Shown in pieces: positions 48,098 through 64,000 of a DNA stretch of 64,000 nucleotides. Made by a program: the position numbers and the translations under genes. The stretch is taken from NCBI GenBank assembly GCA_963775755.1, contig CAVZKB010000001.1, positions 80,011 through 144,010 on the forward strand, read 5' to 3'. Within the stretch, counting starts at the first letter, position 1; each line of letters starts with the position of its first letter. Source of the DNA: an uncultured Actinomycetes bacterium. Lineage in GTDB: Bacteria > Actinomycetota > UBA4738 > HRBIN12. The notes beneath the pieces are model-generated. The model was given only the letters and a program-made list of their open reading frames with translations, was not told the DNA's origin and did not search any database.

Positions 48098-48649
48098 ATG
48101 GCCGAGACCCCCGACGAGATCCTCCGCGCATTGGCCGACCCCGAGCGGCTGGCGATCGCCGGTGCCCTGGCGCAGCAGCCGCGGACGGCCGCGACCCTCG
48201 CGACGGACCTCGAGTTGCAGCTCACGCGGGTCCGCAAGCACCTGAACCGCCTGACGACCACCGGCGTCGTGCGTCTGGAGGCCGACCGTCGCACGTACCG
48301 GCTCGACCCCGAGACGCTCCGGTGGGCCGCCGAGCAGGTAGGGCCGCCGCGCGATGCCGGACTCGCGCTCGGCGCCGCGAACGACGACGAGGAGACGGTT
48401 CTGCGCACGTTCTTCCGCGACGGACGCCTGACCGAGATCCCCGCGAAGGAGGCGAAGCGCCGGATCGTTCTCGAGCGGATCGCGGTCGAGTTCGAGCCGG
48501 GCGTCCGCTACGACGAGAAAGAGGTCAACGCCATCGTCGGGCGGTTCTTCAACGACTACGCGTCCCTCCGCCGCTACCTGATCGATGCCGGATTGCTCGC
48601 GCGCGAGCACGGCGAGTACTGGCGAACCGGCGGACGGGTGGACGACTAA
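48098..48649 (+). CDS. ArsR-like HTH fused to DUF2087-like domain regulator
   Basis: ILRALADPERLAIAGALAQQPRTAATLATDLELQLTRVRKHLNRL HTH; C-terminal …RIVLERIAVEFEPGVRYDEKEVNAIVGRFFNDYASLRRYLIDAGLL…. Confidence 0.6.
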   Translation: MAETPDEILRALADPERLAIAGALAQQPRTAATLATDLELQLTRVRKHLNRLTTTGVVRLEADRRTYRLDPETLRWAAEQVGPPRDAGLALGAANDDEETVLRTFFRDGRLTEIPAKEAKRRIVLERIAVEFEPGVRYDEKEVNAIVGRFFNDYASLRRYLIDAGLLAREHGEYWRTGGRVDD

Positions 48650-48780
48650 CGCCTGGCGAACACCTGTTCGGCCAGGGCTCGACGTTGGGGTATGACCGGT
48701 GCTACGTTCGGGGTCACCGCGACGCGGCCCCCTTCCCCCTTCCCCTGCAGTTGATGCTGCCGCGTCCCGATACGAAAGAG

Positions 48781-49257
48781 ATGGGTATGGGACGGAACCG
48801 GAAGATCCGCCTGATCGCCGCCGCCTTGACGACCGGCGCCCTCGTGCTGCCGCTGCTCGCCGCGACACCCGCCGTCGCAAGCCCTCTCCGTTCGACGACG
48901 CCCTCGGTATCCGGGCCGTGCGCGCTCGGTCGCGGGGCCGGCGAGGCCATCCAGGACTTCTCCATCCGCTTGATCACTTGCGCGGCGAAACGCTGGCCGG
49001 TCGAAGGCGGCGCCGACAAGGCGATCTGCATCGCGCGACGTGAGAGCGGACTGATCCCGACGGCGAGCTCGCCCACCGGCAAGTATGTGGGCCTGTTCCA
49101 GCACAGCGCCGCCGATTGGCCCCGCCGGTACGCCGAATGGACCAAGCGCGTCTGGCGACTCAAGGAGAACCCCTATAACGGCCGCACGAACGCGATCGTC
49201 ACCATCCGGATCGCGAACGCCGAGGGTTGGGCCGCCTGGGCGGGCGCGGGCTGCTGA
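48781..49257 (+). CDS. secreted transglycosylase-like (Rpf-like) domain protein
   Basis: signal peptide, then CIARRESGLIPTASSPTGKYVGLFQHSAADW matching the Rpf/transglycosylase-like catalytic Glu region. Confidence 0.6.
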   Translation: MGMGRNRKIRLIAAALTTGALVLPLLAATPAVASPLRSTTPSVSGPCALGRGAGEAIQDFSIRLITCAAKRWPVEGGADKAICIARRESGLIPTASSPTGKYVGLFQHSAADWPRRYAEWTKRVWRLKENPYNGRTNAIVTIRIANAEGWAAWAGAGC

Positions 49258-49296
49258 GCACAGCCTCCCCGACCGAGTGAGGGCTACACTCGGCCG

Positions 49297-50910
49297 ATGG
49301 TGACCAAAGACAAAGGCAAGGCCCCTCCCGGGGGCGAAGGCGCCGACGCCGAGCACGTCCCCACCGTCGAGGAACGCATCGAGGAGCTCCGCCGCAAGAA
49401 GAAGGCGGCGCTCACACCGGGTGGATCACTCGCCGCCAAGAAGCAGCACGACGGGGGCAAGCTCACCGCGCGCGAACGCCTCGACACGCTGATGGACAAG
49501 GGTTCGTTCGTCGAGACCGACCCGTTCGCGATCCACCGGGCGCACGACTTCGGGATGGACAAGAAGCGGCCTCCGGGCGACGGAGTGATCACCGGCTTCG
49601 GCACGATCGACGGGCGCAAGGTCTTCGTGGCATCGCAGGACTTCGGCGTGTTCGGCGGTTCCATGGGCGAGGTCATGGCGCAGAAGGTCTGCAAGGTGAT
49701 GGACCTGGCCATGCAGACCGGCGCGCCGTTCATCCAGATCAACGACTCCGGCGGCGCGCGCATCCAAGAGGGCGCGGCGTCGCTCGCGGGTTACGGGTTC
49801 ATCTTCGAGCGGAACGTCCGCGCGAGCGGCGTCATCCCGCAGATCAGCGTGATCATGGGTCCATGCGCGGGGGGCGCGGTGTACTCGCCGGCCATCACCG
49901 ACTTCACGTTCATGGTGAAGGAAACGTCGCACATGTTCATCACGGGTCCCGACGTGATCAAGACGGTGACGGGCGAGGAGGTCACGTTCGAGGAGCTCGG
50001 CGGCGCCATGACGCACGCGAGCATCTCCGGCATCGCATCGTTCGTCGGCGAGGACGACGAGGACGTGCTGCAGCGGGTCCGCTACCTGCTGTCGTTCCTG
50101 CCGTCGAACAACCTGGAGGATCCGCCGGCGTACGCCACCACCGACGACCCCGACCGGCTGGACGAGGGGCTCACGCACATCGTCCCTGACCGTGCCAAGG
50201 AGCCCTACGACATGCACGAGGTGATCCGCCGCGTGGTCGACGACGGCGAGTTTCTCGAGATCTTCCCGTTCTGGGCGATGAACATCGTGATCGGACTGAC
50301 GCGACTGGACGGGCGCTCGGTGGGCATCATCGCGAACCAACCGAAGGTGCTCGGCGGCACGCTCGACATCGACGCGAGCGAGAAGGCATCAAGGTTCGTC
50401 CGCTTCTGCGACGCGTTCAACATCCCGATCGTCACGTTCGTGGATGTGCCGGGGTTCCTGCCGGGCAAGGAGCAGGAGTACGGCGGCATCATCCGCCACG
50501 GCGCGAAGCTCCTGTACTCGTTCGCGGAGGCCACCGTGCCGCGGATGACGGTGATCACGCGCAAGGCGTACGGGGGCGCGTACGTCGTGATGAACTCGAA
50601 GCACCTGCGGGCCGACGTCTCGTTCGCGTGGCCGACCGCCGAGATCGCGGTCATGGGCGCGGAGGGAGCGGTGAGCATCGTGTTCCGTAAGGAGATCGAC
50701 AAGGCGGACGATCCGGTGGCCAAGCGCGCCGACCTGATCGACGAGTACAAGCGCAAGTTCTCCACGCCGTACGCGGCGGCCGAGCGTGGGTTCATCGACG
50801 ACGTGATCGAGCCGGCAGAGACGCGGAGACGTCTGATCCAGTCGCTGCGGATGCTTGCGACGAAACGCGAGAGCATCCCCGCCCGCAAGCACGGGAACAT
50901 CCCGCTTTGA
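49297..50910 (+). CDS. pccB: acyl-CoA carboxylase carboxyltransferase beta subunit (propionyl-CoA carboxylase PccB-like)
   Basis: carboxyltransferase N and C subdomains, …[14 protein letters not shown]… motif. Confidence 0.9.
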
Positions 50911-51167
50911 CCATGGACGCCGAGCGGAGGTTCGACCTGCCCCAAGGACTCACCAACGAAGAGGAGCGTGCGATCCTGACGGCGCTCGAGCGGTACTTCC
51001 TGCAAGAGAGCCCGAAGCCGGCCCCGTGGGTTCTCCAGGGCCGGATCGACGCGACGGGGCTCGGCGCGCTGCAGGCGCGGAAGTCTTCGAGGGAGCCGTG
51101 GGTGATCCGGGCACTGTTCGCGCGACGCGGCGTGGCGCCCGTGCTCGGCCGCGGCGACGTCCGGTAG
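50907..51167 (+). CDS. acyl-CoA carboxylase epsilon subunit (AccE-like small peptide)
   Basis: 86-aa ORF directly coupled (ATGA) to pccB, composition and position typical of actinobacterial epsilon subunits. Confidence 0.5.
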
Positions 51168-51485
51168 ATGGGCGCGAAGGACCACGATCAGATGACGGCG
51201 ACGAAGACGCCCGGGAACGCAACGCTCGCGGATGCGACCGCGGCATTCTCGGCGGAAGGATGCTCGCCGCCTCAGGCATGGGGCAACGACGCCGGCGACA
51301 CGTACGGGCGACACGACCACCCCTACCACAAGGTGCTGTTCTGCCTGGCGGGATCGATCGTGTTCCACACCGACGACGGGGACATCGAGCTGCGCGCAGG
51401 CGATCGGCTGGACCTGGAGCCGGGGACGGCGCACGCCGCGACCGTCGGGCCCGGTGGGTGCCGATGTGTCGAGGCCTCGAGGTGA
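51168..51485 (+). CDS. cupin domain protein
   Basis: …HDHPYHKVLFCLAGSIVFHTDDGDIELRAGD… cupin motifs. Confidence 0.65.
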   Translation: MGAKDHDQMTATKTPGNATLADATAAFSAEGCSPPQAWGNDAGDTYGRHDHPYHKVLFCLAGSIVFHTDDGDIELRAGDRLDLEPGTAHAATVGPGGCRCVEASR

Positions 51486-52612
51486 AGGTTGCGTTCCACG
51501 TCGACCAACTCTGGTTCAGCGCACCGGGAGGGATCGGGACGTACGTGGGCGAGCTGCTCGAGGCGTTGCCCGCCCAAGACGAGACCCTGCAGCTGACGCC
51601 GTTCTACTCGAAGTGGCGGAAGCCCCCGCGCGAAGCGCCGCTCACCACCGATGGGAGATACCCCGGCGTGGAACTGTCACGGTCGATACGCACCCTCTAC
51701 CCCTCGTGGGACCTGCTCGGCCGGCCGGCGCTCCCCGCTTCGTTGGCCGACGCCGCCATCGTCCATGCCACGAACCACGCGGCCGTCCCTCCGGTCCATG
51801 CGGGTCAAAGGCTGGTCGTGACGGTCCACGACCTGGCGTTCCAGCGGTTCCCGGACCTGTTCCCACGCGCCTGGCGCTGGCTCTACCGAGCGGGCCTCCG
51901 CGCCGCCGCGAGACGTGCCGACGCCATCCTGGTCCCGTCGCAGAGCACGGCAGACGACCTCGTCACCTCGACCTCAGTCCCGCCGTCGCGCGTACACGTG
52001 ACGCCGCTCGCGCCGTCGCTCGCCGCATCTCCGCAAGCTCCGTCCGAGGTGTTCGGTCGTCTCGGCGTCACGCCGCCGTACGTGTTGTCGGTAGGAACAC
52101 TCGAACCGAGGAAGAACCTTGTGCGACTGGTCCGCGCCTACCGGCAGGTCGCTCCCGACGTGCCCCACGCGCTCGTGCTCGCCGGCGCGCCCGGCTGGCG
52201 GTCGGAGGCGCTCGACACGGAGCTCGCGAGGCCGGGTCCGGGGACGATCGTTCGAACCGGGACCGTGTCCGCCGACGACCTCGACGTCTTGTACCGGGGC
52301 GCCGACGCCTTCGCCTACCCGTCGTTGTACGAAGGGTTCGGCCTGCCGGTGGTGGAGGCGATGGCCCGAGGCGTGCCGACGCTCGCCTCCGACACCTCCT
52401 CGCTCCCCCGGGTCGCGGGCGATGCCGCGCTCCTCGTGGACCCGACAGACGTCTCGGAGATCGCCGAGGGACTCGCCCGCCTGTTGACCGAGCCCGCGTT
52501 GGCCGACGATCTCCGACAGCGAGGCCTGCAGCGCGCGGCGACGTTCACCTGGGCCGCCACCGCTCGCGCTACGCTCGACGTGTACCGCGAGCTGACGGAG
52601 ACGTCGTCGTGA
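51482..52612 (+). CDS. glycosyltransferase family 4 (GTG start coupled to cupin stop; alternative ATG 51464)
   Basis: …YVLSVGTLEPRKNL…FAYPSLYEGFGLPVVEAMARGVPTLASDTSSLPRVAGD…. Confidence 0.8.
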   Translation: MKVAFHVDQLWFSAPGGIGTYVGELLEALPAQDETLQLTPFYSKWRKPPREAPLTTDGRYPGVELSRSIRTLYPSWDLLGRPALPASLADAAIVHATNHAAVPPVHAGQRLVVTVHDLAFQRFPDLFPRAWRWLYRAGLRAAARRADAILVPSQSTADDLVTSTSVPPSRVHVTPLAPSLAASPQAPSEVFGRLGVTPPYVLSVGTLEPRKNLVRLVRAYRQVAPDVPHALVLAGAPGWRSEALDTELARPGPGTIVRTGTVSADDLDVLYRGADAFAYPSLYEGFGLPVVEAMARGVPTLASDTSSLPRVAGDAALLVDPTDVSEIAEGLARLLTEPALADDLRQRGLQRAATFTWAATARATLDVYRELTETSS

Positions 52613-53541
52613 AGGTGTCGCTGATCTCGACCGTGAAGGACGCCTCGGCGCACATCGAAGAGTTCGCCGGCTCGGTGGCCGCGCAGACGCGAACACCGGA
52701 CGAGGTCATCGTCGTCGACGGCGGCTCGACCGACGGGACGCCCGATCTGCTGCGCCGTGCGGGCGCCGGCTCGGTGACCGTGATCGAGGAACGGGGCGCG
52801 AACATCGCCCGCGGCCGGAACCTGGCGATCGCCGCCGCGGCCCACGACGTGATCGCCGTGACCGACGCCGACTGCGTGCTCGATCCGCACTGGCTCGAAC
52901 GGATCCTCGAACCGATCGAAGCGGGCGCCGACGTGTCCATGGGCTCCTACGTCCCGATCACCGACGGCTTCTTCCAGGAATGCATGGCGTCGGTGAACCT
53001 GGCGCTCGATCCCTCCGACATCGAGCCCGCGTCCTTCATGCCGAGCGCGCGTTCGGTCGCGTTCCGGCGCGCTTCGATCGACGCGGCCGGCGGCTACCCG
53101 GAGTGGCTCGCCATCGGCGAGGACATGTGGGTGAACCGTCGATGGCGCGAGCTCCGCGTGGACATGCGGTTCGCCCCCGACGCCGTCGTTCGCTGGCGCC
53201 TTCGGCCGACGATGCGGGCGACCTGGGCGCAGTACTTCCGGTACGCGCGAGGGGACGCGCAGGCGGGGATGTTCCCCGAGCGTCACGCGCTGCGGTTCGG
53301 CGTGTACGTCGGGGCCACCGCCGTGCTCGCCTCACGCCGACGCTGGCCCAAGGTGTTGGCGGCCGCCGGAGCCGTGGCGTACGCGCGGGAGCCCGTGCGC
53401 AGGGCGTGGCGTCGCATGCCGGACCCTCGTGAGCGCGCCACCGCAGCCGTCGTCGTCCCCGTGCTGATGGGGTGGATCGACACGGCCAAGATGGCGGGCT
53501 ACGTCGTCGGTCTGATCGATCGCGGACGACGGGGCGGCTGA
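52609..53541 (+). CDS. glycosyltransferase family 2
   Basis: VSLISTVKD…DEVIVVDGGSTDGT…; GTGA coupling to GT4; tail of long track ORF 51232..53541. Confidence 0.75.
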   Translation: MKVSLISTVKDASAHIEEFAGSVAAQTRTPDEVIVVDGGSTDGTPDLLRRAGAGSVTVIEERGANIARGRNLAIAAAAHDVIAVTDADCVLDPHWLERILEPIEAGADVSMGSYVPITDGFFQECMASVNLALDPSDIEPASFMPSARSVAFRRASIDAAGGYPEWLAIGEDMWVNRRWRELRVDMRFAPDAVVRWRLRPTMRATWAQYFRYARGDAQAGMFPERHALRFGVYVGATAVLASRRRWPKVLAAAGAVAYAREPVRRAWRRMPDPRERATAAVVVPVLMGWIDTAKMAGYVVGLIDRGRRGG

Positions 53542-53597
53542 CCGCAGGTCACCGGAGCAGCCTGCCCAACGGCGACCGGGGAGGGCTAGGCTGCGGC

Positions 53598-55115
53598 ATG
53601 CGTCGAACACCGATCGTCGTCCTCGCGATCGCCATCGTTTCAGCCGGCGTGATCGCGGCGCCCGGACCGACGGCCACGGCTCGCGCCCAGGACACGATCA
53701 AGCTCAAGGTCATGACGTTCAACATCCGCGAGGGTGGGGTCCACGGGCAGTTCTCGAAGGTGGTCGAAGCGATCAAGGCGGCTGAAGCGGACGTCGTCGG
53801 GCTACAGGAGCCGTTCGGCCGGACGCGGAAGCTGGCGCGGGCACTCGGGTGGTACGCGGCTCCGCGCCTCCACACGATCTCGCGGTTCCCGATCCTGCAG
53901 CCGGAGGGGAGCGACGGGTTCTGGGGCTGGCTCCTGGTCGCGCCGGGCAAGGTCGTGACGATCGCGAACATCCACAACCCTTCCTACCCCTACACCGTCA
54001 ACATGATGCGGTTGGGCACCGCCACGAAGGCCGAGATCCTGCAGATCGAGCGCCACGTACGGATCCGGTGGATGCAGCCCTTCCTGGATTCGCTCGCGCC
54101 GCAACTCGAAGCGGGCGATCCCGTCTTCTTCACGGGTGACTTCAACGCGCCGTCGTGGCGCGACTGGACGCCCGAGGTGGTCGCCGCGCTCGGATGGCAG
54201 CCGACCACCCTCCGCTACCGGGCGCCCCGGTTCTCGATCCGCTGGCCGACCTCGATCGTGATGGAGAAGGCGGGCTTCCGCGACTCGTTCCGCGCGGTCC
54301 ACCCCGACGCGATCGCGGACCCCGGGTTCACGTGGACGTCCGGCCATCCCGGCATCTCACCGTGGGACGTGTTCGATCGCATCGACTTCGTCTGGGCGGC
54401 GGGCTCCACGCAGACCCTGTCGAGCCGCGTCGTGGGCGATGACGACCCGATGTCGGACATCGTCGTCGAGCCGTGGCCGTCGGATCACCGCGCGGTGGTC
54501 AGCACGTTCCGTGTGCACCCTGCGGACGCGCCGGCGTTCGTCGCGCCTTTGGACGTGCGCGTGCCGATCGGACGGCCCGTACACGGTGTGTTCCACGCGA
54601 CGCCCGCACCCGGGCGCGTCGTCGGTGTCTGGGCGGACGATGCCGACCCTGCGACGGACGAACCGCTCATCTCCGCTCCGGTCGACGACACCGCCGATGG
54701 AACGCTCGACCTGCCCACGGGCGATCTTGCGCCCGGCGTCTACGCCCTGGCCCTGGTCGGATCGGCCGGGGTGCTCTCCCGCACGACGTTCGCCGCGGTC
54801 GACCAGAAGGCGCCCGCGACCATCTCGGTGGCTCAGCGGAGCTACGCCGTCGGCGACCCGATCGTGGTCTCGTGGACGAACGCGCCGGGGAACCGTTACG
54901 ACTGGTTGGACCTGCACGCGGCCGACGCCACGCCCACGACCGGCCGCATCTGGCTCTGGCGCTACATCGGGGCCCGGGTCTTCGGTTCTGCGCCGTTCAA
55001 GGCCGAGGCGACGGGCAACTGGCCCCTCCCACCCGGTCGCTATCGCGTGACGCTCTGCGTCGATGACGGCTACGACTGCCTGGCCACGACCGAAACGTTC
55101 CGCGTCGTCGGATAG
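53598..55115 (+). CDS. secreted endonuclease/exonuclease/phosphatase (EEP) family protein with C-terminal beta-rich domains
   Basis: signal peptide; VMTFNIREGG…VVGLQE… EEP motifs, …SDHRAV… catalytic His. Confidence 0.7.
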   Translation: MRRTPIVVLAIAIVSAGVIAAPGPTATARAQDTIKLKVMTFNIREGGVHGQFSKVVEAIKAAEADVVGLQEPFGRTRKLARALGWYAAPRLHTISRFPILQPEGSDGFWGWLLVAPGKVVTIANIHNPSYPYTVNMMRLGTATKAEILQIERHVRIRWMQPFLDSLAPQLEAGDPVFFTGDFNAPSWRDWTPEVVAALGWQPTTLRYRAPRFSIRWPTSIVMEKAGFRDSFRAVHPDAIADPGFTWTSGHPGISPWDVFDRIDFVWAAGSTQTLSSRVVGDDDPMSDIVVEPWPSDHRAVVSTFRVHPADAPAFVAPLDVRVPIGRPVHGVFHATPAPGRVVGVWADDADPATDEPLISAPVDDTADGTLDLPTGDLAPGVYALALVGSAGVLSRTTFAAVDQKAPATISVAQRSYAVGDPIVVSWTNAPGNRYDWLDLHAADATPTTGRIWLWRYIGARVFGSAPFKAEATGNWPLPPGRYRVTLCVDDGYDCLATTETFRVVG

Positions 55116-55134
55116 CCGCGGCCGGCGCGGCCGG

Positions 55135-55578
55135 CTAGGCGGGTTCTTCCGTCTCCGTCCCGTACATGACCACGATCACGAACAGGGCGAACGCGAGGAC
55201 GTGCACGACCGTGCACCACAGACAGATCGCTCGGATCATGAACAGCTCCGCGTAGACCAGCCAGAGGACGAACGCCATGGCGAACGTGACGGTCGCCACG
55301 CGGACGGTCCGGAGCCACGGAGCCGTCCAGCGCCACACCCACGGAGAGAAGAGCACGCACAACCCGAGGAACCACAACAGACCGAGCAGCGCCACCGAGA
55401 TGCCGAACACCTCCGATTGCGCACTCGTCGTGACGCGCTTGCAGTTGACGACGCCCTCCGATGCGCACGCCAACACATCCGGCGAGGTGAAGTGCGCGAT
55501 GGTCAGATACGCGGACACCGCCGTGCCCGCGATCGTGATCGCGAACGTGGCGGGGACCACCCACGCCGGTCGCGTCAT
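55135..55578 (-). CDS. vitamin K epoxide reductase (VKOR) family membrane protein
   Basis: loop cysteines [13 protein letters not shown] and active-site CLWC in TM4. Confidence 0.75.
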
Positions 55579-56507
55579 GCCGAAGGCAAGGACGCCGCGG
55601 CGCTCGACACCCCGGGAGCGGTGCACACATCCGTCGGCGCCCCGTCCGTGAGCCGGCAGATCGATGCTGTCAGCATGTTGGCGGCCGCGAGCACCTGCTT
55701 CGCGATGGGGCTCGACGGATCCGACAGCGCGGACGCGACCTGCTGCCAGGTCTTGCCCTGCAAGATGTCGGGCGGATAGCTCGAACCGCTGATGGCGAAC
55801 CGGTTCCCGATCAGCAGGAACGGGATGCTCCCGGCCTGTGAGGTGTACGGAGGAGCGTCGAACGTCTGCATCAGCTTCTGCTGCTCGGCAGTGACCGTGT
55901 CGAGCGGTTCGTAGCCGAGACCCGAGGCCGTGAGCTGATTCGTGTTCAGCTCGAGCCCGACGAACGAGATCAGGTCGCTCGAGTACGTGGAGCCGTGGAA
56001 CGTGAGCGTCGGGGTGTTCGGGAAGATGTCGGTCGCCGACGAGGTCGAGAGCCCGAGCCCGGAGAACGTCCCGAACCGCGAGAGCGCGATGACCGTCGGC
56101 CAGCGCTCGGATGCGCAGAACGGGCAGTACTCGGCTCCGATGTACAGGACCTCCGGCTTCCCGTCGCTCGTGACCGCAGGAGCACCGGCGGCGATGGCGG
56201 CCGGTTGGCTGATCCCCTGGCCGGCGCCGACCGCGTCGAGCGCGGAGGCCGGGACCGACGTCACCGCGCGAACCACCTTGGCCGTTCCGCTCGTCGCGGG
56301 CGCGGCCGGGGTGTCACCCTTCTTGCCGACGCTCAACCCGACCATGACCAGCACGATCGCGACGACGACGCCGATCGCGAACAGCGGCAGACGTCGGCTC
56401 ATGCCCGACCGCCTCGAGCGCGACGATCCGGACCCGTTCGATCGCGAGCGCTGCCCCTTGGCCGCGCTCGCTGCTGCCTTGCGCTTCTGCGCCGTCCGGT
56501 TCGTCAT
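55575..56507 (-). CDS. DUF929-like thioredoxin-fold protein (CPFC) with N-terminal TM anchor, VKOR partner
   Basis: …[16 protein letters not shown]…; stop abuts VKOR start. Confidence 0.6.
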
Positions 56508-56635
56508 CGTCCCTGCCGATCGTACGGACTCATCCAAGGCCTCCTCGATGACCAGCGTACGGGCTGCCTCGCCGCCGCCCCCGGGCCGAGCGACCCGCAC
56601 CGACCGGGTCGTTCGGCGGCAGCGAAAGGGCTCGC

Positions 56636-57496
56636 TCAGGCGTCGTAGAAGCCGCCGCCGGACTTACGGCCGAGCCTCCCCGCCGCGACCATCCGCCGGA
56701 GCAGGGGCGGCGGCGCGTAGCGCTCCTCGCGGAACTCGGCATGGAGCACCTCGCCGATGCTCAGCATGGTGTCCAGGCCGATCAGATCCATCAGCGCGAG
56801 CGGGCCCATCGGGTGCGCCAGGCCCAGGTGGATCGCGGCGTCGATGTCCTCGCGGGTCGCGAAGCCCTCGTCATAGAGACGGATCGCATCGAACAGGTAG
56901 GGCACCAACAGCCGATTCACGATGAAGCCGGCGTGATCCTTCGATCGTACGCAGGTCTTTCCCAGCACGTCCGTTCCGTAGCTCCGCGCGAACGCCAGCG
57001 TCTCGTCCGAGGTCGTGACGGCCGGCGTGAGCTCGAGCAGCGCCATCACGGGCGGCGGGTTGAAGAAATGCATCCCGATCACGCGATCCGGCCGCCCCGA
57101 CGCGACGGCGAGCTCCACGATCGGGATCGACGACGTGTTCGAGGCGAGCACGACCTCGGGCCGCGTGAGCTCTCCCAGCGTCCGGAAGATCGCGAGCTTC
57201 GCCTGGACGTCCTCCGTCGCCGCCTCGATCACCAGATCCGACGCGCCGAGCGCGGTGAGGTCGGTGACCCCGCGGACCCTGCCGAACAGCGCCTCCGCAT
57301 CGCCCGGTTCGAGCTTGCCGCGGGCGACCGCCTTGCCCACCGAACGTTCGATCGCGTCGCGGCCACGGGACACGAGATCGTCGCTGCCCTCCACGTACGT
57401 GACGTCCGCACCGGCGCGAGCGAGGACCTCGACGATGCCGGAGCCCATCAGGCCGCAGCCGACGACCCCGACGTGTCGAACCTCTCGCGGATCCAC
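56636..57496 (-). CDS. hbd: 3-hydroxybutyryl-CoA / 3-hydroxyacyl-CoA dehydrogenase; GTG start after AGGAGGAGG RBS
   Basis: [16 protein letters not shown] Rossmann, catalytic …SNTSSIPI…, C-terminal dimerisation domain. Confidence 0.85.
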
Positions 57497-57542
57497 GACC
57501 CTCCTCCTCACGCTCGTCGGCCGCCAGCCTACAATCCAACCC

Positions 57543-58000
57543 ATGAGCGCTCGACGCCGGCTCGCCACGTTGGGCGTCGCCGTCGGCGGCGTGCTCGCGG
57601 GTCATTGGCTCACGTACCTCGCGGTGGCGCCGGTCGCGGGCTCGCGCGCGGCCATCCTGCGCCAGACGGGACACGCGTACCTCGGGCTCGCCAACGACCT
57701 GGCGCTCGTCGCCGCACTCGCAGCGATGGCCACCATGTTCATCGGGCAGCTGACCGACCCGGAGCCGACCGGGCAGCTCCGAGGGCTCACGGCGCGGGTC
57801 GTTCGGTTCCAGGTGATCGCGTTCGTCCTCCTGGAGGTGCTCGAGCGCGTGACGGCGGGATCCCCGCTCGCCGGGTTGATCCACACGGGCATCCTGCCCG
57901 TCGGCATCGCCGCGCAGATCGCGATCGGATATCTCGCCGCGCGTGCGATCCGGTGGCTCCTGCGAACGGCCGATCGCGTGGCCGCAACCTTCGGACGCGC
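57543..58000 (+). CDS. hypothetical 4-TM membrane protein; 3' end undefined (frame reads through into next gene without a stop)
   Basis: MSARRRLATLGVAVGGVLAGHWL… four hydrophobic helices, then Arg/Pro-rich low-complexity translation. Confidence 0.35.
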
Positions 58001-58175
58001 CGGCATCGCTCCCCGCCGTGACGTGCCCCGCACGCTCCTGCCGGAGCCGGTCTTCCGGTCCCGGCCGTGCGTCACCTCTCCGCGGCGGGCGTCCGCGGTC
58101 CACCCTCCTCCGTCTGATCGACGCACGTTCGCGCTTCGATGCGCGACCATCAGACGAATGGAAGGAGATCTATCC

Positions 58176-58860
58176 GTGCGTATCCGCGCGAAACTCGTCG
58201 CCGCTGCCATCCTCGCGGTCGCCGTGCTCCTGTTCCTCCCGGGGGTCGCTTCGGCCCACGAAGAGAAGGAGGTCGGCCCGTATCTGCTGGAGGTCGGCTT
58301 CGGCACCGAACCCGCGCGTATGTCGGGCAGCCGAACAGCGTGCAGCTGCATCCTGAGCAACGACGACAAGCCCGTCGTCGATCTCGGCGACACGCTGAAG
58401 GTGGTGGTCGAATTCGGCGAGCACGTGACGAGCGATCCCGATGGCGCTGGAGCCGTTCTTCGAGATCGGAGAGATCGGGATCCCCGGCGACTACCGGGCG
58501 TTCTTCGTCCCCTCCCAGGCCGGGTGACTACACGTTCCACATCACCGGAACGATCCACGGAACGAAGGTCGACGAGTCATTCACGTCCGGCCCGAAGACG
58601 TTCGCGACGGTCGAGGACATCTCGTGCGTGACGTTCCCGCAGGTCCAGGCGTCCCACGAACGCGGATCTCGCGTCGCGCATCCAGACAGAGTCGGATAGG
58701 ACCTCGTCGGCACTCGCCGACGCGACCACTGCGGGGACGGACGGCGAGCGCCGCCGCCAACAGCGCGAACGACTCCGCCGACAGCGCGAAGATGGTGGGC
58801 ATCATCGGCATCGTCGTGGGCGCGATCGGGCTTGACCGTCGCCGTCGTCGCCCTCTCCGC
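58176..58860 (+). pseudogene. YcnI-like (DUF1775-type) secreted copper-binding protein with N-terminal His after signal peptide, disrupted by at least two or three frameshifts
   Basis: GGAAGGAG RBS + GTG 58176; signal peptide …FLPGVASA|HEEKEVGPYLLEVGFGTEP…; protein-like segments continue in three different frames (…ILSNDDKPVVDLGDTLKVVVEFGEHVTSDP / MALEPFFEIGEIGIPGDYRAFFVPSQAG / DYTFHITGTIHGTKVDESFTSGPKTFATVED / MVGIIGIVVGAIGL anchor). Confidence 0.4.
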
Positions 58861-58886
58861 CAGCGAGGAAGAAGGCGTAAGCGCAG

Positions 58887-59453
58887 GTGCTGGCACACGG
58901 GGGAACCCCGGACGAACAGGTCGCGTTGATCACGGTCGTCTCGGGCCTGTGGATCGGATGGGCGGGCGTGTCGCGCATCCGGGACAAGGGGTTCCCCCGT
59001 CTGCCGATCATCGGGGCGTGGAGCCTGGCCGTCATCGGAGGGGTGGTCGTCATCGCGGGCCTCACGCTCCCCCGGCAGTTCATGCGACCCAACGCCACCC
59101 CGACCGCATCCCCGACGGGGGCACGTATCGCTTCGACCGCCACGCTCGCGATCGACCGACCCACGGCGGGGCAGACGGTGTCGGGCACGCAGGTGGAAGT
59201 GGTGATGACGCTCGCCGGCGGCCACATCGTGGACTCGGCCAGCACGACGCTCACGCCGGACACCGGGCACATCCACCTCTCGCTCGACGGGAAGCTCGTC
59301 TCGATGACGTACGGCCTGGTCCAGCTCGTGGACCTGAGCGGTCTCTCACCGGGCGAGCACACGCTCGAAGCGGAGTTCGTCGCGGCCGATCACAGCCCCT
59401 TCGACCCACGGGTGGTCGCGCAGACCACGTTCACGGTCGGGGGCGGGACGTGA
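58887..59453 (+). CDS. 2-TM membrane protein with periplasmic His-rich domain (HxH…DH…FDP), candidate metal-binding
   Basis: …TPDTGHIHLSLDGKLVSMT…EHTLEAEFVAADHSPFDPRVV…; paralogous to 61432..61884. Confidence 0.5.
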   Translation: MLAHGGTPDEQVALITVVSGLWIGWAGVSRIRDKGFPRLPIIGAWSLAVIGGVVVIAGLTLPRQFMRPNATPTASPTGARIASTATLAIDRPTAGQTVSGTQVEVVMTLAGGHIVDSASTTLTPDTGHIHLSLDGKLVSMTYGLVQLVDLSGLSPGEHTLEAEFVAADHSPFDPRVVAQTTFTVGGGT

Positions 59454-61420
59454 GCCGCCTGGCGCGGTCCCTGCTGGCCCTCGGCATCGCCGGATCGTTC
59501 ACGCTCGCGCTCGCGTGGCCGGCGGGGGCCCACGCGAACCTCGCCGGCTCGGATCCCGCCGCGAGCGCCCTGCTCGACAAGGCTCCCGCCGCAGTTACGA
59601 TGACGTTCACCGAGCCGCCCGACCCGAAGCTGTCCATCGTCCATGTGCTGGACGTGAACGGCACTCCGGTGGAAGCGGGACCGGTCGATGCCGTAGCGGG
59701 GCAGAGCGACGAGCTCGCCATCGCGCTTCCCGATGATCTGCCCGACGGCGTGTACACGGTCAGCTGGCGGGTCGTGTCCGAGGCGGACGGGCACGAGACC
59801 GCCGGGGCCTTCAGCTTCGGCGTCAACGTCGCGGTCGGGACGGCAGTCGTCCCGAGCATCCCGGTTCCGGTAACCCCGTCGCCGTCCGTCGCGAGCGTGG
59901 CGAGCAAGTTCTTGCTCTACGCCGGGCTCGTCGTGCTGTTCGCGACGGGGGTCGTGGGGATCCTCGCCTTCGGCGGGAACGTACCCGCCCGGCGGCCGGT
60001 GCTGCTGACCGGAGCCGCCGCCGGTGCGGTCGGCGCCGTGGGGATGCTCGTGTCGGAGCGAGCGGCGTTGGGCGTGTCGATGGGTGACCTGCTGTCGTCG
60101 TCGACGGGAGCGGACTTCCTCTGGTTGCTGGGCGGGGTCGCGTTCGCCGTGGTCGCCGCCGTCGATGCATCGAGGAGGTCGGGGCGAACCCCGCTCGTCG
60201 TGGCCGGGGTCGCCGCGGCGTCGGCCATGCTCATCCGCGCCATCGGAGGTCACGCCGCCGCCGCGGCGACCCCGACGCTCCAGATCGGTCTGCAGTGGTT
60301 CCACTTCATGGCCGCGAGCGTGTGGATCGGCGGCTTGTTGCTCGCGTTCCTGGCGCTACGCGCGCGCCGTGAAGCCCAAGACGACGCTCAGATCGCGGAG
60401 ATCCGCCGCTACTCCTCCCTGGCGGGGTACGCGCTCGCCGTCGTCCTCGTCACCGGTGTGCTCCGCGCGACGGAAGAGGTCGGCGGTCTCTCCAAGCTGC
60501 TGCATCTCTTCCGCGGTTCGTACGCCAGCACGCTGGACCTCAAGGTTGCGGTGGTACTGGTGCTGATCGCACTGGGCGGGTTCAACCGCTACCGCTCGAT
60601 CCCGCGGATGGGCACGCGTCCGGGGATGCTCCGGCGGGTGATGACGATCGAGCTGGTGGGCGCCTTGGGGGTCTTCGGGCTCACCGGCACGCTGACCGGC
60701 CTCCAACCCCGGCCACCCGTCACGCCCCCGGCCCAGAAAGCCCCGAGCGTCACGCTCCGCGGCAGCGATTTCGCCACGACGATGAAGATCACGTTGGCCG
60801 TCTCGCCCGGTGCGGCCGGTCCGAACAGGTTCGACGCCGACGTCACCGATTTCGACTCCGGCGCTCCCCTGGATGCCACCGATGTGTCGCTCCGGTTCGA
60901 GCCCGTCGGGCAACCGGGCGTGGGCGCCAGCACGCTCGACCTGACGCACCACGGCGATCGCTGGACGGCGAGCGGCGGCCAGGTCTCGATCGCGGGGGTG
61001 TGGACGATCACGGCGGTCGTCCAGACCGCATCGTCGGGTACCGAGATCCCGATGACGCTCGTGACGTCCCTCCTCGACCAGCAGGTGACGGTCTCGACCG
61101 CCGCCGGGCAGCCGGACATCGACACGTTCGCCTTCCCGGACGGCGAGCAGATCCAGATGTACAACGACCCGGGAACCCCGGGAACGGACGAGCTGCACCT
61201 GACGGCGTTCGACACGGACGGGACCGAACTGCCGCTCGCCCGCGCCACCATGATCGCCGTGGCGCCCGACGGGGTGACATCGTCGCTGCAAACGCGGCGA
61301 TTCTCCGCCGGCCATTTCGTGGGCGACGTCACGCTCACGACCGGGAGATGGACGTTCTTCGTGCAGGTGACCGCCCGCGACGGGCGCGTCCTCGTAGCAT
61401 CCTTCGAGCAGACGATCTGA
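59450..61420 (+). CDS. CopC-CopD fusion copper resistance/uptake protein (YcnJ-like) with C-terminal periplasmic domain
   Basis: signal peptide + CopC (…AGAHANLAGSDPA…YTVSWRVVSEADGHETAGAFSFGV), 8-TM CopD region, GTGA coupling to upstream gene. Confidence 0.8.
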   Translation: MSRLARSLLALGIAGSFTLALAWPAGAHANLAGSDPAASALLDKAPAAVTMTFTEPPDPKLSIVHVLDVNGTPVEAGPVDAVAGQSDELAIALPDDLPDGVYTVSWRVVSEADGHETAGAFSFGVNVAVGTAVVPSIPVPVTPSPSVASVASKFLLYAGLVVLFATGVVGILAFGGNVPARRPVLLTGAAAGAVGAVGMLVSERAALGVSMGDLLSSSTGADFLWLLGGVAFAVVAAVDASRRSGRTPLVVAGVAAASAMLIRAIGGHAAAAATPTLQIGLQWFHFMAASVWIGGLLLAFLALRARREAQDDAQIAEIRRYSSLAGYALAVVLVTGVLRATEEVGGLSKLLHLFRGSYASTLDLKVAVVLVLIALGGFNRYRSIPRMGTRPGMLRRVMTIELVGALGVFGLTGTLTGLQPRPPVTPPAQKAPSVTLRGSDFATTMKITLAVSPGAAGPNRFDADVTDFDSGAPLDATDVSLRFEPVGQPGVGASTLDLTHHGDRWTASGGQVSIAGVWTITAVVQTASSGTEIPMTLVTSLLDQQVTVSTAAGQPDIDTFAFPDGEQIQMYNDPGTPGTDELHLTAFDTDGTELPLARATMIAVAPDGVTSSLQTRRFSAGHFVGDVTLTTGRWTFFVQVTARDGRVLVASFEQTI

Positions 61421-61431
61421 CGGGAGCGCGG

Positions 61432-61884
61432 ATGAGAGACCGGTGCACGCGTGGAGCCCTCGTCGGGGCCGCGGTGCTGGTGTTCGCTCTCGGGGCGTGC
61501 GGGGGCGGCGGAGGCGAGTCCCCGGGCCCGAGCCCCAGCTCCCCTACCCCGACCGTCAGCGCCGACCGGCCCGCCAGCCCCGCGAAGCTAACGGTCATCT
61601 CGCCGAAGAACGGGCAGGTGGTCCAAGGAACCACGGTCGAGATGAAGGTGTTGCTCAAGGACGCGAAGCTCGTTCCCGCGACGAGCTCGACCATCGTTCC
61701 CGACGAGGGCCACCTCCATGTCATCCTGGACGATCAACTGATCTCGATGACGGGAGATACTTCGCAACTGCTCTCGAACCTGACGCCCGGGCAGCACCTG
61801 CTGAAGGTGGAGTTCGTCGCGTCCGATCACGCGCCGTTCGATCCGCGGGTCATCGCGGCGGTCGCGTTCGAGGTTCAGGCGTGA
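61432..61884 (+). CDS. lipoprotein with His-rich periplasmic domain paralogous to 58887..59453
   Basis: lipobox LGACGGG; …PDEGHLHVILDDQLISMT…QHLLKVEFVASDHAPFDPRVI…. Confidence 0.6.
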   Translation: MRDRCTRGALVGAAVLVFALGACGGGGGESPGPSPSSPTPTVSADRPASPAKLTVISPKNGQVVQGTTVEMKVLLKDAKLVPATSSTIVPDEGHLHVILDDQLISMTGDTSQLLSNLTPGQHLLKVEFVASDHAPFDPRVIAAVAFEVQA

Positions 61885-62456
61885 ACGGCGCCGTCCCCGC
61901 GCAGACGCGAACCCACACCCCGTCTACGGTCGCGCTCCCCGTCGTGGTTGCGGTCGCGACGCTGCTGCTCCGCCCCCGGATCCTTCAGACGCCGGACGCG
62001 ACCCGGATCGCGCTCCTCGCCGTGGTCTTCGCGGCGATCCTCGTGACCTCGCTCCTCGTGCCGGTGACGCGCGACATCGCCCGCATCCACCCCGTGACCG
62101 TGGCCGTCGTCGGCCTGGCGGGCGTCGGTCTGGCCGCCCTCGCCGCCGGACGACCCGTCGCCGCGCCGCTCGGCTCGTCGGCGCTCCCCCTCGCGCTCCT
62201 CGCGGCCGTCGCCGAGGAAGCGTTGTTCCGCCGGGCCGCCTACGGATGGCTCGCACGCTCCGGACCGGCGATCGCCGTCGTTGGTTCCGCGCTGCTGTTC
62301 GCCGCGATCCACCTGCCGCTCTACGGAGCCCCGGCGTTCCCGGTCGACCTCGGCGCGGGCTTGCTGCTGTCGTGGCAGCGATGGGCATCCGGAACCTGGA
62401 CCGTGCCCGCGGCGACCCACGGCGCGGCGAACGTGCTGGCGGTGATCCTGCGATGA
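61881..62456 (+). CDS. CPBP-family (CAAX-type) intramembrane metalloprotease
   Basis: EExxxR (AEEALFRRAAY), FxxxH (FAAIHLP), HxxxN (HGAAN) motifs; GTGA coupling. Confidence 0.7.
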   Translation: MNGAVPAQTRTHTPSTVALPVVVAVATLLLRPRILQTPDATRIALLAVVFAAILVTSLLVPVTRDIARIHPVTVAVVGLAGVGLAALAAGRPVAAPLGSSALPLALLAAVAEEALFRRAAYGWLARSGPAIAVVGSALLFAAIHLPLYGAPAFPVDLGAGLLLSWQRWASGTWTVPAATHGAANVLAVILR

Positions 62457-63709
62457 CCAGGAAGCTCGCGGTCTTCGCGTTCTGCACGGCGCTCGTGGCC
62501 GTCGGCTGCACCCGCACCGGCGCTCCCGACGGCATCCGGGTCGGGGCGATCTATCCGCTGTCGGGCTCGCAGGGACCCGGCGGCATCGACGAGCACCGCG
62601 GCATCATGCTGGCCGCCGATCTCGCGAACGAGGACGGCGGCGTCGACGGCCGGACGATCCGGATCGAATCGGTCGATACACCCGGCTCCGACGCGGCGGC
62701 GGCGGCCGTCGACCAGCTCCACGCGGACGGCATCGACCTGGTGCTCGGCAGCTACGGCAGCACGATCTCGGGGCCGGCGTCGGCCGAGGCCGCGTCGAAC
62801 GGCATGCTGTTCTGGGAGACCGGGGCGGTCGGGATGCTTCCCCCCGATTCGGACCGCGGCGGCCTGACGTTCCGCGTCCCGCCCACCGGCGAGGTGCTGG
62901 GCCGCGCGGCGATCGCGTACATCGCCGATCAGGTGGCACCGGAGCGGCACCGCGACCCGGCCTCCCTGCGTTTCGCCGTCTCCTTCGTCGACGACGCGTA
63001 CGGCCGCTCCGTCGCGTCGGGCGCCGAGGCCGAGCTGCGGGCTCGCGGGCTGCACGACGTCGGCGACTTCGGCTACGACTTCCGCACGGTCGACATGGCG
63101 AAGTTCGTCCATCGGATCGCCGCCGCGAGGCCCGATGTGCTGTTCGTGTCGGCCTACCTCGACGACGCCATCTCGCTGCGCAGGCAATTGGTCGCGCAAC
63201 ACGTCGAGCTGCTGGCGAACATCGGCACTTCGTCGAGCTACTGCATGCCCGCGTTCGGTTCGACGTTGGGCGAGGACGCGGTAGGCGTGTACGCGTCGGA
63301 CAAGCCGTCGGCCGCGTCGATCAACCCCTCGGGGTTGCGCCCCGATGCTCGCTCGCTGCTGCGACGCGCGAACGACGCCTACCACGCGAAGTGGGACGAG
63401 GACATGAGCCCGGCCGCGCTCGCCGGCTTCTCCGCAGCGTGGGCGTTCTTCACCGACGTCCTGCCGGCCGCGACATCGCTCGCGCCCGCGGACGTCGCCG
63501 CCGCCGCGCGCGGGATCGATCTTCCGCGTGGCAGCCTGCCGAACGGGAGCGGGCTGCGGTTCGGAGCACCCGATACCCCGAACGCCGGCGACAACATCGA
63601 AGCAGCGAGCGTGATCTGGAAGTGGGTGGCGCCCGGAGAGGCCGCCGTCATCTGGCCGCCGGCGTTCGCGACCGACCCCATGGATCCGAGCGCGTCGGAC
63701 GCGTGGTGA
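62453..63709 (+). CDS. ABC transporter substrate-binding lipoprotein (branched-chain amino acid / LivK-like family)
   Basis: lipobox VAVGCT; type I periplasmic binding fold segments (…LVLGSYGSTISGPASAEA…). Confidence 0.7.
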   Translation: MTRKLAVFAFCTALVAVGCTRTGAPDGIRVGAIYPLSGSQGPGGIDEHRGIMLAADLANEDGGVDGRTIRIESVDTPGSDAAAAAVDQLHADGIDLVLGSYGSTISGPASAEAASNGMLFWETGAVGMLPPDSDRGGLTFRVPPTGEVLGRAAIAYIADQVAPERHRDPASLRFAVSFVDDAYGRSVASGAEAELRARGLHDVGDFGYDFRTVDMAKFVHRIAAARPDVLFVSAYLDDAISLRRQLVAQHVELLANIGTSSSYCMPAFGSTLGEDAVGVYASDKPSAASINPSGLRPDARSLLRRANDAYHAKWDEDMSPAALAGFSAAWAFFTDVLPAATSLAPADVAAAARGIDLPRGSLPNGSGLRFGAPDTPNAGDNIEAASVIWKWVAPGEAAVIWPPAFATDPMDPSASDAW

Positions 63710-64000
63710 GCAGGCGCTCGGTCGTCGTCGCCGGCGTGGCGATCGTGACGGCCTATGTCGCGCTCGCCGGGCTGTCCGGACGTCTCACTCCGCTCGCGCG
63801 CGGTCCCCTGCTCGACGGGATCGGGCCGCCGCAGCCCTACCGGTGGGTCAGCCCGCCGCCCGACCTCGCCTCGGGCAACCAGCCGCCCTCCTCGGGCGCC
63901 TTCCACATCCCGCTCGACCCGAAAGGGTCCCGGCCGGAGGTGTTCGTGACCTCCGACAACCAGGTGACCGTTGTCGTGCCGCAGGGTGCGTTCGACGCGG
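63706..64000 (+). CDS. hypothetical membrane-anchored/secreted protein, 3' end beyond window
   Basis: GTG start overlapping upstream stop; TM/signal helix VVVAGVAIVTAYVALAGL. Confidence 0.4.
   Translation, partial: MSRRSVVVAGVAIVTAYVALAGLSGRLTPLARGPLLDGIGPPQPYRWVSPPPDLASGNQPPSSGAFHIPLDPKGSRPEVFVTSDNQVTVVVPQGAFDA

Follow-up and report, generated by a model that had tools for sequence, protein, structure and literature searches.

Does a gene whose protein-like sequence breaks off and resumes in another reading frame, several times over, belong to an organism that has lost it, or to an assembly that has misrepresented it? We address this question for a 64,000-nt stretch of DNA (hereafter the window) from an uncultured Actinomycetes bacterium (GTDB lineage Actinomycetota; UBA4738; HRBIN12; GenBank assembly GCA_963775755.1, contig CAVZKB010000001.1, positions 80,011 to 144,010), in which the interrupted gene, here called gene A, lies in a locus that also encodes a fused CopC-CopD protein and two paralogous His-rich proteins. 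Comparison with related loci leads us to conclude that the frameshifts of gene A are very probably an artefact of a long-read consensus drawn from mixed strains rather than the mark of a dead gene. We further consider it likely that the account holds as a whole, i.e., that such an artefact overlies a conserved copper-handling operon with a tethered Cu(II) relay.

Origin of the frameshifts in gene A

From ~58310 onward, the protein-like reading of gene A hops among all three frames, and the phase of the GC content at third codon positions (GC3) rotates along with the reading frame. We placed the insertions and deletions (indels) relative to locus L011, from a 1.35-Mb ENA contig that carries P0001, the best gene A match, and relative to seven other close copies. 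This placement yielded eight frame-shifting indels in gene A (seven +1, one -1), plus one in-frame +3 (Table 1); the initial annotation had recognized the three-frame reading correctly but had supposed only two or three indels. The in-frame insertion and its flanking substitutions (58424-58428) occur in the window only, giving GEHVTSDP where all close relatives have GDQSSDP, and the three added bases could be either a real allele or a further consensus error.

A further indel explains why the open reading frame (ORF) that begins at 57543, encoding a membrane protein with four transmembrane segments (4-TM), runs on into the gene A region without a stop, as had been noted earlier. The CC insertion at 58060-58061 shifts its frame so that the stop is missed, and the 4-TM ORF therefore reads into gene A. 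Upon removal of the CC in silico, the C-terminus ...FRSAVRHLSAAGVRGPPSSV and the stop at 58115-58117 return, as in L011, L013, L014 and L016, and the C-terminus of the 4-TM family (...AVRHLSAAGVRGPPSSV) is regained.

The window and L011 form a single 15,830-bp alignment (window 48174-64000) with 99.2% identity, within which the differences are strongly clustered: 72 of the 122 fall in 57977-58884, as do 12 of the 13 indel events in 58060-58878, and divergence drops from ~8% over 57977-58884 to ~3% by 59381 and ~0.35% in the flanks. Both the 4-TM gene and gene A are intact in L011 and in 16 further related loci; the intact copies of gene A, 17 in all, include nine species-level GTDB loci (L001, L002, L004-L010) and the strain-level contigs L011-L017, which were drawn from ENA, JGI and Logan assemblies. 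At the sites that separate L011 from L013, a ~95% identical strain, the window nearly always has the L011 allele outside ~57.95-59.4 kb; within this tract it switches among L011-like, L013-like and third alleles at intervals of a few tens of bases.

Many of the indels coincide with known strain variation. Four of the seven insertions consist of both alleles of a single-nucleotide polymorphism (SNP) of the panel in tandem (null 0.117 per insertion; P = 0.005; Table 1), and the deletion at 58313/4 sits on an Asp/Gly A/G SNP. Once the seven extra bases are taken out and the missing one is put back, gene A reads as an uninterrupted ORF of 232 aa that retains 26 of 26 invariant and 31 of 33 near-invariant family residues, the two exceptions being the GTG start and a Met common to P0001. 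The 41 gene A substitutions relative to L011 are distributed 8/8/25 over codon positions 1/2/3 (chi-square p = 9e-4), and this preference for position 3 indicates divergence under purifying selection, not decay.

From indels on strain SNPs, the haplotype mosaic and intact copies elsewhere, we infer a mixed-strain consensus. Over ~57.95-59.4 kb, the window would be the consensus of at least two co-occurring strains, which at SNP sites would have kept both alleles (+1) or neither (-1); in the organisms themselves, gene A and the 4-TM gene are most likely both intact. Consensus errors from strain collapse look alike, with indels where haplotypes differ, both alleles in tandem and clean flanks. 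The public-database relatives of the source organism are Microflora Danica metagenome-assembled genomes (MAGs). Flye and a single Medaka round were used to assemble these related MAGs from Nanopore reads only, and microdiversity is reported for the soils they came from (PMC12313526).

Frameshift errors look common in related long-read MAG assemblies. High-scoring segment pairs are split across frames in L002 (8148-8661), L008 (8102-8520), L004 (12448-13003) and L005 (7242-8047), the genes hit in these related loci being the 4-TM gene, the CPBP protease gene and the 3-hydroxyacyl-CoA dehydrogenase gene, and the gene A homologue calls P0010 and P0067 are frameshifted. Elsewhere in the window, ORFs are long and uninterrupted, reaching up to 1133 aa in a GC3/ORF tiling of the whole window, a crude filter whose "gaps" include intact genes and which shows only that frameshifting is not pervasive.

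Several observations weigh against a consensus artefact. The insertions at 58350, 58440 and 58652 have no matching SNP in the close-strain panel, and 58440 (C/G) and 58652 (G/T) match SNPs only in more distant orthologues, by eye. Sixteen of the gene A substitutions are found in the window only, which needs either a third, unsampled allele or further errors. The case is also built from a comparison of assembled sequences only.

A rival reading is a real pseudogene, in which gene A and the 4-TM tail would have been inactivated in this strain, perhaps after import of a divergent allele by homologous recombination. The indels are, after all, present in the deposited sequence, the 16 window-only substitutions would suit an imported allele, and the tract could be a natural recombinant, gene A being the most variable gene of the cassette. 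We nevertheless regard inactivation as quite improbable. Bacterial pseudogenes are usually biased towards deletions, and the indel spectrum of gene A is the opposite: single-base insertions outnumber deletions by seven to one, few of these indels lie in homopolymers, and larger deletions are absent. On this insertion bias, together with the codon-position bias and the invariant residues kept in full after correction, we reject a pseudogene formed by neutral decay. The insertions moreover reproduce both alleles of known SNPs, gene A is intact in every other copy examined, and the remaining operon is intact and tightly packed, with all four genes 3' of gene A (2-TM protein, CopC-CopD, lipoprotein and CPBP protease) uninterrupted. 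That the first gene is truly broken by frameshifts, as had been supposed, is thus most likely wrong in view of the intact copies, the SNP-tandem insertions, the codon bias and the mosaic.

Functional frameshifts, arising by phase variation, by programmed frameshifting or by targeted hypermutation of the kind that a diversity-generating retroelement (DGR) causes, would fit the concentration of sequence change in one surface-exposed gene but have a negligible probability. Neither the spectrum of mutations nor the shift count agrees with programmed frameshifting, DGR activity or hypermutation of another kind: the eight shifts, spread over 550 nt, are not all decodable, the indel sites lack repeats or slippery runs, the substitutions are not adenine-specific, and a DGR variable region is much shorter than the tract.

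Proteins surrounding the CopC-CopD fusion

The strong ribosome-binding site and GTG start of gene A described earlier, opening a signal-peptide protein with a His mature N-terminus, were borne out (58160-58167 and 58176): the product starts with VRIRAKLVAAAILAVAVLLFLPGVASA and continues with HEEKEV, with cleavage predicted between ASA and HEEKEV. The stitched translation has >1200 homologues, with lengths of 217-233 aa; every one is labelled hypothetical, and only one has a Pfam domain. Across 54 sequences of the family, A25, A27, H28 and E45 are invariant, such that predicted cleavage after AxA leaves His28 as the first mature residue, with the invariant Glu45 17 residues later. The C-terminus is a long helix ending in the hydrophobic GIIGxVVGAIGLIVAVVAL. 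In an AlphaFold model of P0001, made from the 54 sequences (mean predicted local distance difference test (pLDDT) score 83), a signal helix precedes an eight-strand beta-sandwich (29-135), after which comes a long C-terminal helix whose end is the transmembrane (TM) segment.

Gene A is also the fastest-evolving gene of the cassette, with 61% amino-acid identity between the window lineage and L001, compared with 70-88% for neighbouring genes, and it shows strong polymorphism even between nearly identical strains (D/G47, K(A/N/D)D, Q/R, A/P, A/E).

Gene A had been called ycnI-like, with reference to Bacillus subtilis YcnI (DUF1775, PF07987; ycnKJI), which has an N-terminal His27/Glu50 Cu(II) site and a C-terminal TM helix and adjoins CopCD (PMC8424229). 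Much of the likeness stands: in both proteins a signal peptide precedes a His as the first mature residue (predicted for gene A) and a conserved Glu ~20 residues on, a C-terminal TM helix tethers the extracytoplasmic beta-sandwich, and a gene for a CopC-CopD fusion lies nearby. Family membership does not. The alignment to DUF1775 that had been proposed gave no match, as the stitched protein has no Pfam match at E ≤ 0.1 and none of the 54 family members matches PF07987 at E ≤ 1; NCBIfam holds no model for gene A, and YcnI is not near the top in fold searches. In addition, the capping Trp of YcnI (Trp137) is absent from gene A, with no Trp at all in P0001 or in the corrected window protein, and the gene order differs, gene A lying upstream of copCD with a DUF4399 gene between and ycnI lying downstream. 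These comparisons suggest that gene A is a topological and probably functional analogue of YcnI that stands outside the YcnI family.

In a structure search with the gene A model, CrdA was the best match, with P19, Tp34 and HftA near the top, which on the predicted fold would place the gene A beta-sandwich closest to CrdA/P19/CopC. At the sequence level, however, identity to Helicobacter pylori CrdA, CopC and P19/FtrA is only 10-14%, with no hidden Markov model (HMM) match. CrdA and CopC are moreover soluble periplasmic proteins of diderm bacteria, the former with a Met-rich site (PMC9182242), while gene A is TM-anchored and its candidate site is an N-terminal His. Sequences in the PDB matched the gene A family profile only at chance level. 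Weak Pfam matches to YtkA (20/54 family members, best E = 2.8e-4) and Filamin (14/54) were set aside as generic E-set beta-sandwich similarity.

The two His-rich proteins are a protein with two TM segments (2-TM) and a lipoprotein, encoded on either side of copCD. That they share a domain was confirmed (49% identity over 114 aa, E = 2e-33), as was their bracketing of a CopC-CopD fusion, through matches to PF04234 and PF05425 at 59450-61420. The domain had been regarded as uncharacterised and undescribed; it is in fact a known Pfam family, DUF4399 (PF14347), though one without an assigned function. Scores lie at or just below the gathering cut-off of 28, with 28.6 bits for the 2-TM protein and 25.4 bits for the lipoprotein, and PF14347 is precomputed for P0121 (identical to the lipoprotein) and for most homologues. 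A weak match to DUF6130 (PF19625) is also found, both Pfam families sharing the motif GHxH...D...H...(N)DH with the paralogues. Conserved in both paralogues are G93-H94-x-H96, D100, H122, E127, D132-H133 and F136-D-P-R139, amounting in each to four invariant His plus a number of acidic residues that are likewise invariant. The HMM search and structure prediction suggested for this domain thus lead to the uncharacterised DUF4399 and to an immunoglobulin/fibronectin type III (Ig/FN3)-like sandwich, modelled with pLDDT >90 and with only generic structural neighbours. A PDB sequence search with the lipoprotein returned chance-level matches only. In the literature found, DUF4399 is mentioned by four papers, all without functional work, DUF6130 by none, and a DUF4399 pair flanking copCD is not described.

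A profile built from the paralogues found 1581 relatives at E ≤ 1e-3 among 1.84 billion representatives, with a DUF4399 match in 38 of the 42 scanned and a wider consensus of GxGHxHxxxDG...GxHxxxVxLxNNDH. Some of these relatives have one domain and a length of 130-200 aa; others are tandem arrays with as many as ten repeats, in proteins of ~900-1170 aa. Among the 52 multidomain relatives scanned, three are fused to cupredoxins (P0255, P0362, P0369); Kelch repeats (P0267) and a Sortilin-Vps10 region (P0261) were also seen. In addition, a Sulfitobacter mediterraneus plasmid (NZ_CP069000.1, 69016-69774; L018 5539-6297) encodes a 252-aa protein annotated as a PCu(A)C copper chaperone, in which a PCuAC domain (43-128) precedes a DUF4399-like domain that keeps GHxH and DH (hhalign probability 95%, E = 5e-8) and that the Pfam DUF4399 model itself misses. 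Such fusions are few, yet as the sole informative partners of DUF4399 they suggest a link to copper. In L008 (12017-12346, minus strand), one more DUF4399 copy, in inverted orientation, lies between copCD and the lipoprotein gene.

The fusion protein at the centre of the locus had been described as YcnJ-like. This holds for its CopC-CopD part, with CopC (PF04234) at residues 28-125 and CopD (PF05425) at 317-415, although the NCBIfam CopC and CopD matches fall below the equivalog cut-offs. The mature CopC N-terminus is HANLAGSDP, followed by the motif SEADGHETAG and without a Met cluster, and by the criteria cited in PMC12362106 this N-terminal His plus D-x-H, with no Met-rich Cu(I) site, is the site of a CopC domain of the Cu(II)-only (C0-1) type. 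YcnJ likewise carries an N-terminal Cu(II)-type CopC fused to CopD and an extra C-terminal extracytoplasmic region, in its case a YtkA domain. The two differ in that region and in length: the window protein is longer, and its C-terminal extracytoplasmic extension of ~230 aa has no Pfam match, with no YtkA domain (PF13115) detected in the C-terminal 239 aa even at E ≤ 10.

Operon conservation and proposed copper function

The order 4-TM, gene A, 2-TM DUF4399, CopC-CopD, lipoprotein DUF4399, CPBP recurs in each of the nine GTDB genomes in which the locus is complete (CopCD identity 46-80%); a tenth GTDB locus, L003, is a short contig with only the 3' part of the cassette. Gene A stands one gene away from copCD in the nine GTDB loci, L011 and L016, and the cassette always adjoins a divergently transcribed 3-hydroxyacyl-CoA dehydrogenase gene. 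Translational coupling of the downstream genes had been proposed, and two of the junctions are indeed GTGA overlaps (59450-59453 and 61881-61884), while the remaining two are 6- and 11-nt spacers. We conclude that these six genes form a conserved operon in a lineage of uncultured soil Actinomycetota, and that the operon's products act on the outer face of the cytoplasmic membrane. The three accessory proteins and the CopC domain are predicted to lie on that face, tethered by a C-terminal TM helix, a 2-TM hairpin (positive loop predicted inside), a lipid anchor and the body of CopD.

This organization, a conserved operon in which a CopC-CopD fusion has tethered extracytoplasmic partners, upholds the earlier reading of the locus as copper-handling. 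YcnI exchanges Cu(II) with the CopC domain of YcnJ (PMC12362106), and by analogy we propose a tethered relay as the most likely mechanism: three membrane-tethered extracytoplasmic beta-sandwich proteins would surround the CopC-CopD core, capture Cu(II) and hand it on to the CopC domain, and CopD would import the copper to supply cuproenzymes. Pressed further, and tentatively, the gene A family and DUF4399 may be two unrecognised membrane-tethered copper-binding families that relay Cu(II) to CopC-CopD in monoderm Actinomycetota, with gene A a non-homologous, convergent counterpart of YcnI acting through its N-terminal His/Glu and DUF4399 binding via GHxH...H...DH. Copper binding by DUF4399, if true, would explain the cupredoxin and PCuAC fusions and the tandem arrays of up to 10 repeats.

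Two points tell against this copper function. No copper-sensing regulator adjoins the operon, including the YcnK-type regulator of ycnKJI, and metal binding by gene A and DUF4399, like the direction of transport, is argued from analogy with characterised systems. An intact operon might instead serve copper tolerance or sequestration, or handle another metal such as iron or zinc, with the tethered proteins acting as metal buffers or being fast-evolving surface proteins. It was from copper-resistance operons that CopC and CopD were originally described, opinion is divided on which way CopD transports copper (PMC12362106, PMC8689200), and the best structural match of gene A, CrdA, is itself a copper-resistance determinant (PMC9182242). 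P19, Tp34 and HftA are iron/copper proteins, His/Asp-rich sites like those of DUF4399 also suit Zn or Ni, and gene A evolves faster than its neighbours. Against tolerance, the CopC domain is of the Cu(II)-only type, as in the importer-associated YcnJ, and the locus lacks an efflux ATPase, a multicopper oxidase and a CsoR/CopY regulator. We therefore consider these alternatives to import rather unlikely.

Locus features and significance

The features of the locus are collected in Table 1. The base composition of the region is actinobacterial (high GC, ~70%).

Table 1. Genes, sequence signals and indels of the locus, in window coordinates
Feature	Position	Strand	Remarks
4-TM membrane protein gene	57543-58117	+	190 aa in relatives; interrupted in the window by the CC insertion
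Divergent mosaic tract	57977-59381	no strand	~1.4 kb; comparison with L011 and L013
CC insertion	58060-58061		Frameshift in 4-TM gene
Shine-Dalgarno sequence GGAAGGAG	58160-58167	+	8 nt 5' of the gene A GTG start
Gene A	58176-58880	+	GTG start; signal peptide, His28, beta-sandwich of ~110 aa, long helix, C-terminal TM anchor
-1 deletion	58313/4		Gene A frameshift
+1 insertions, unique to window	58350, 58440, 58520, 58652, 58742, 58832, 58862		Gene A frameshifts
+3 insertion	58424-58426		In frame, gene A
Alleles in tandem	58520		Window G then C; Ala/Pro polymorphism, G or C
Alleles in tandem	58742		Window GG-A-C-GG; L011 C (Ala); L013, L014, L015 A (Glu)
Alleles in tandem	58832		Window C then T; L008 T
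Alleles in tandem	58862		Window CC-A-G-CG; L011 A (Thr); L013, L014 G (Ala)
-1 deletion	58878		Spacer just past gene A stop
2-TM hairpin protein, C-terminal extracytoplasmic DUF4399 domain	58887-59453	+	PF14347 28.6 bits; motifs GHIH...D...H...E...DH.PFDPR
CopC-CopD fusion	59450-61420	+	656 aa; PF04234 78.3 bits, PF05425 51.8 bits
Lipoprotein, lipobox LGAC, DUF4399 domain	61432-61884	+	Paralogue of 58887-59453
Rce1-like CPBP intramembrane protease	61881-62456	+	PF02517 50.9 bits; last gene of cassette

The 4-TM protein has no Pfam or NCBIfam match. Just upstream, on the minus strand (~55100-56600), are a VKOR gene and a DUF929 gene (thioredoxin-like, CPFC motif), a pair that looks like an actinobacterial extracytoplasmic disulfide-bond system adjoining the copper operon. 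On the downstream side, a Peripla_BP_6 gene (418 aa, 62453-63709) and a 253-aa gene follow, which are separate in the window and in JGI contig L016. L011 has one extra C here (window 63513; L011 ~15331), and its gene call is a single 670-aa protein; this fused call is probably an indel error of L011 itself.

The locus offers a clear illustration of how, in long-read MAGs, a mixture of strains gives rise to a cluster of frameshifts, recognizable where the two alleles of a SNP have both been retained next to each other. Counts of pseudogenes or of fused genes would wrongly take in such clusters; in the present case the product is a 4-TM/gene A read-through that is false. For copper biology the finding is incremental. 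CopC-CopD copper uptake is poorly understood, and its accessory chaperones vary by lineage (YcnI, PCuAC, YebY, YtkA); the operon puts forward the gene A family and DUF4399 as candidates for additional accessories, each offering invariant residues as targets for mutation (H28 and E45 in gene A; H94, H96, H122 and H133 in DUF4399). If this proves true, a widespread domain of unknown function would gain a function.

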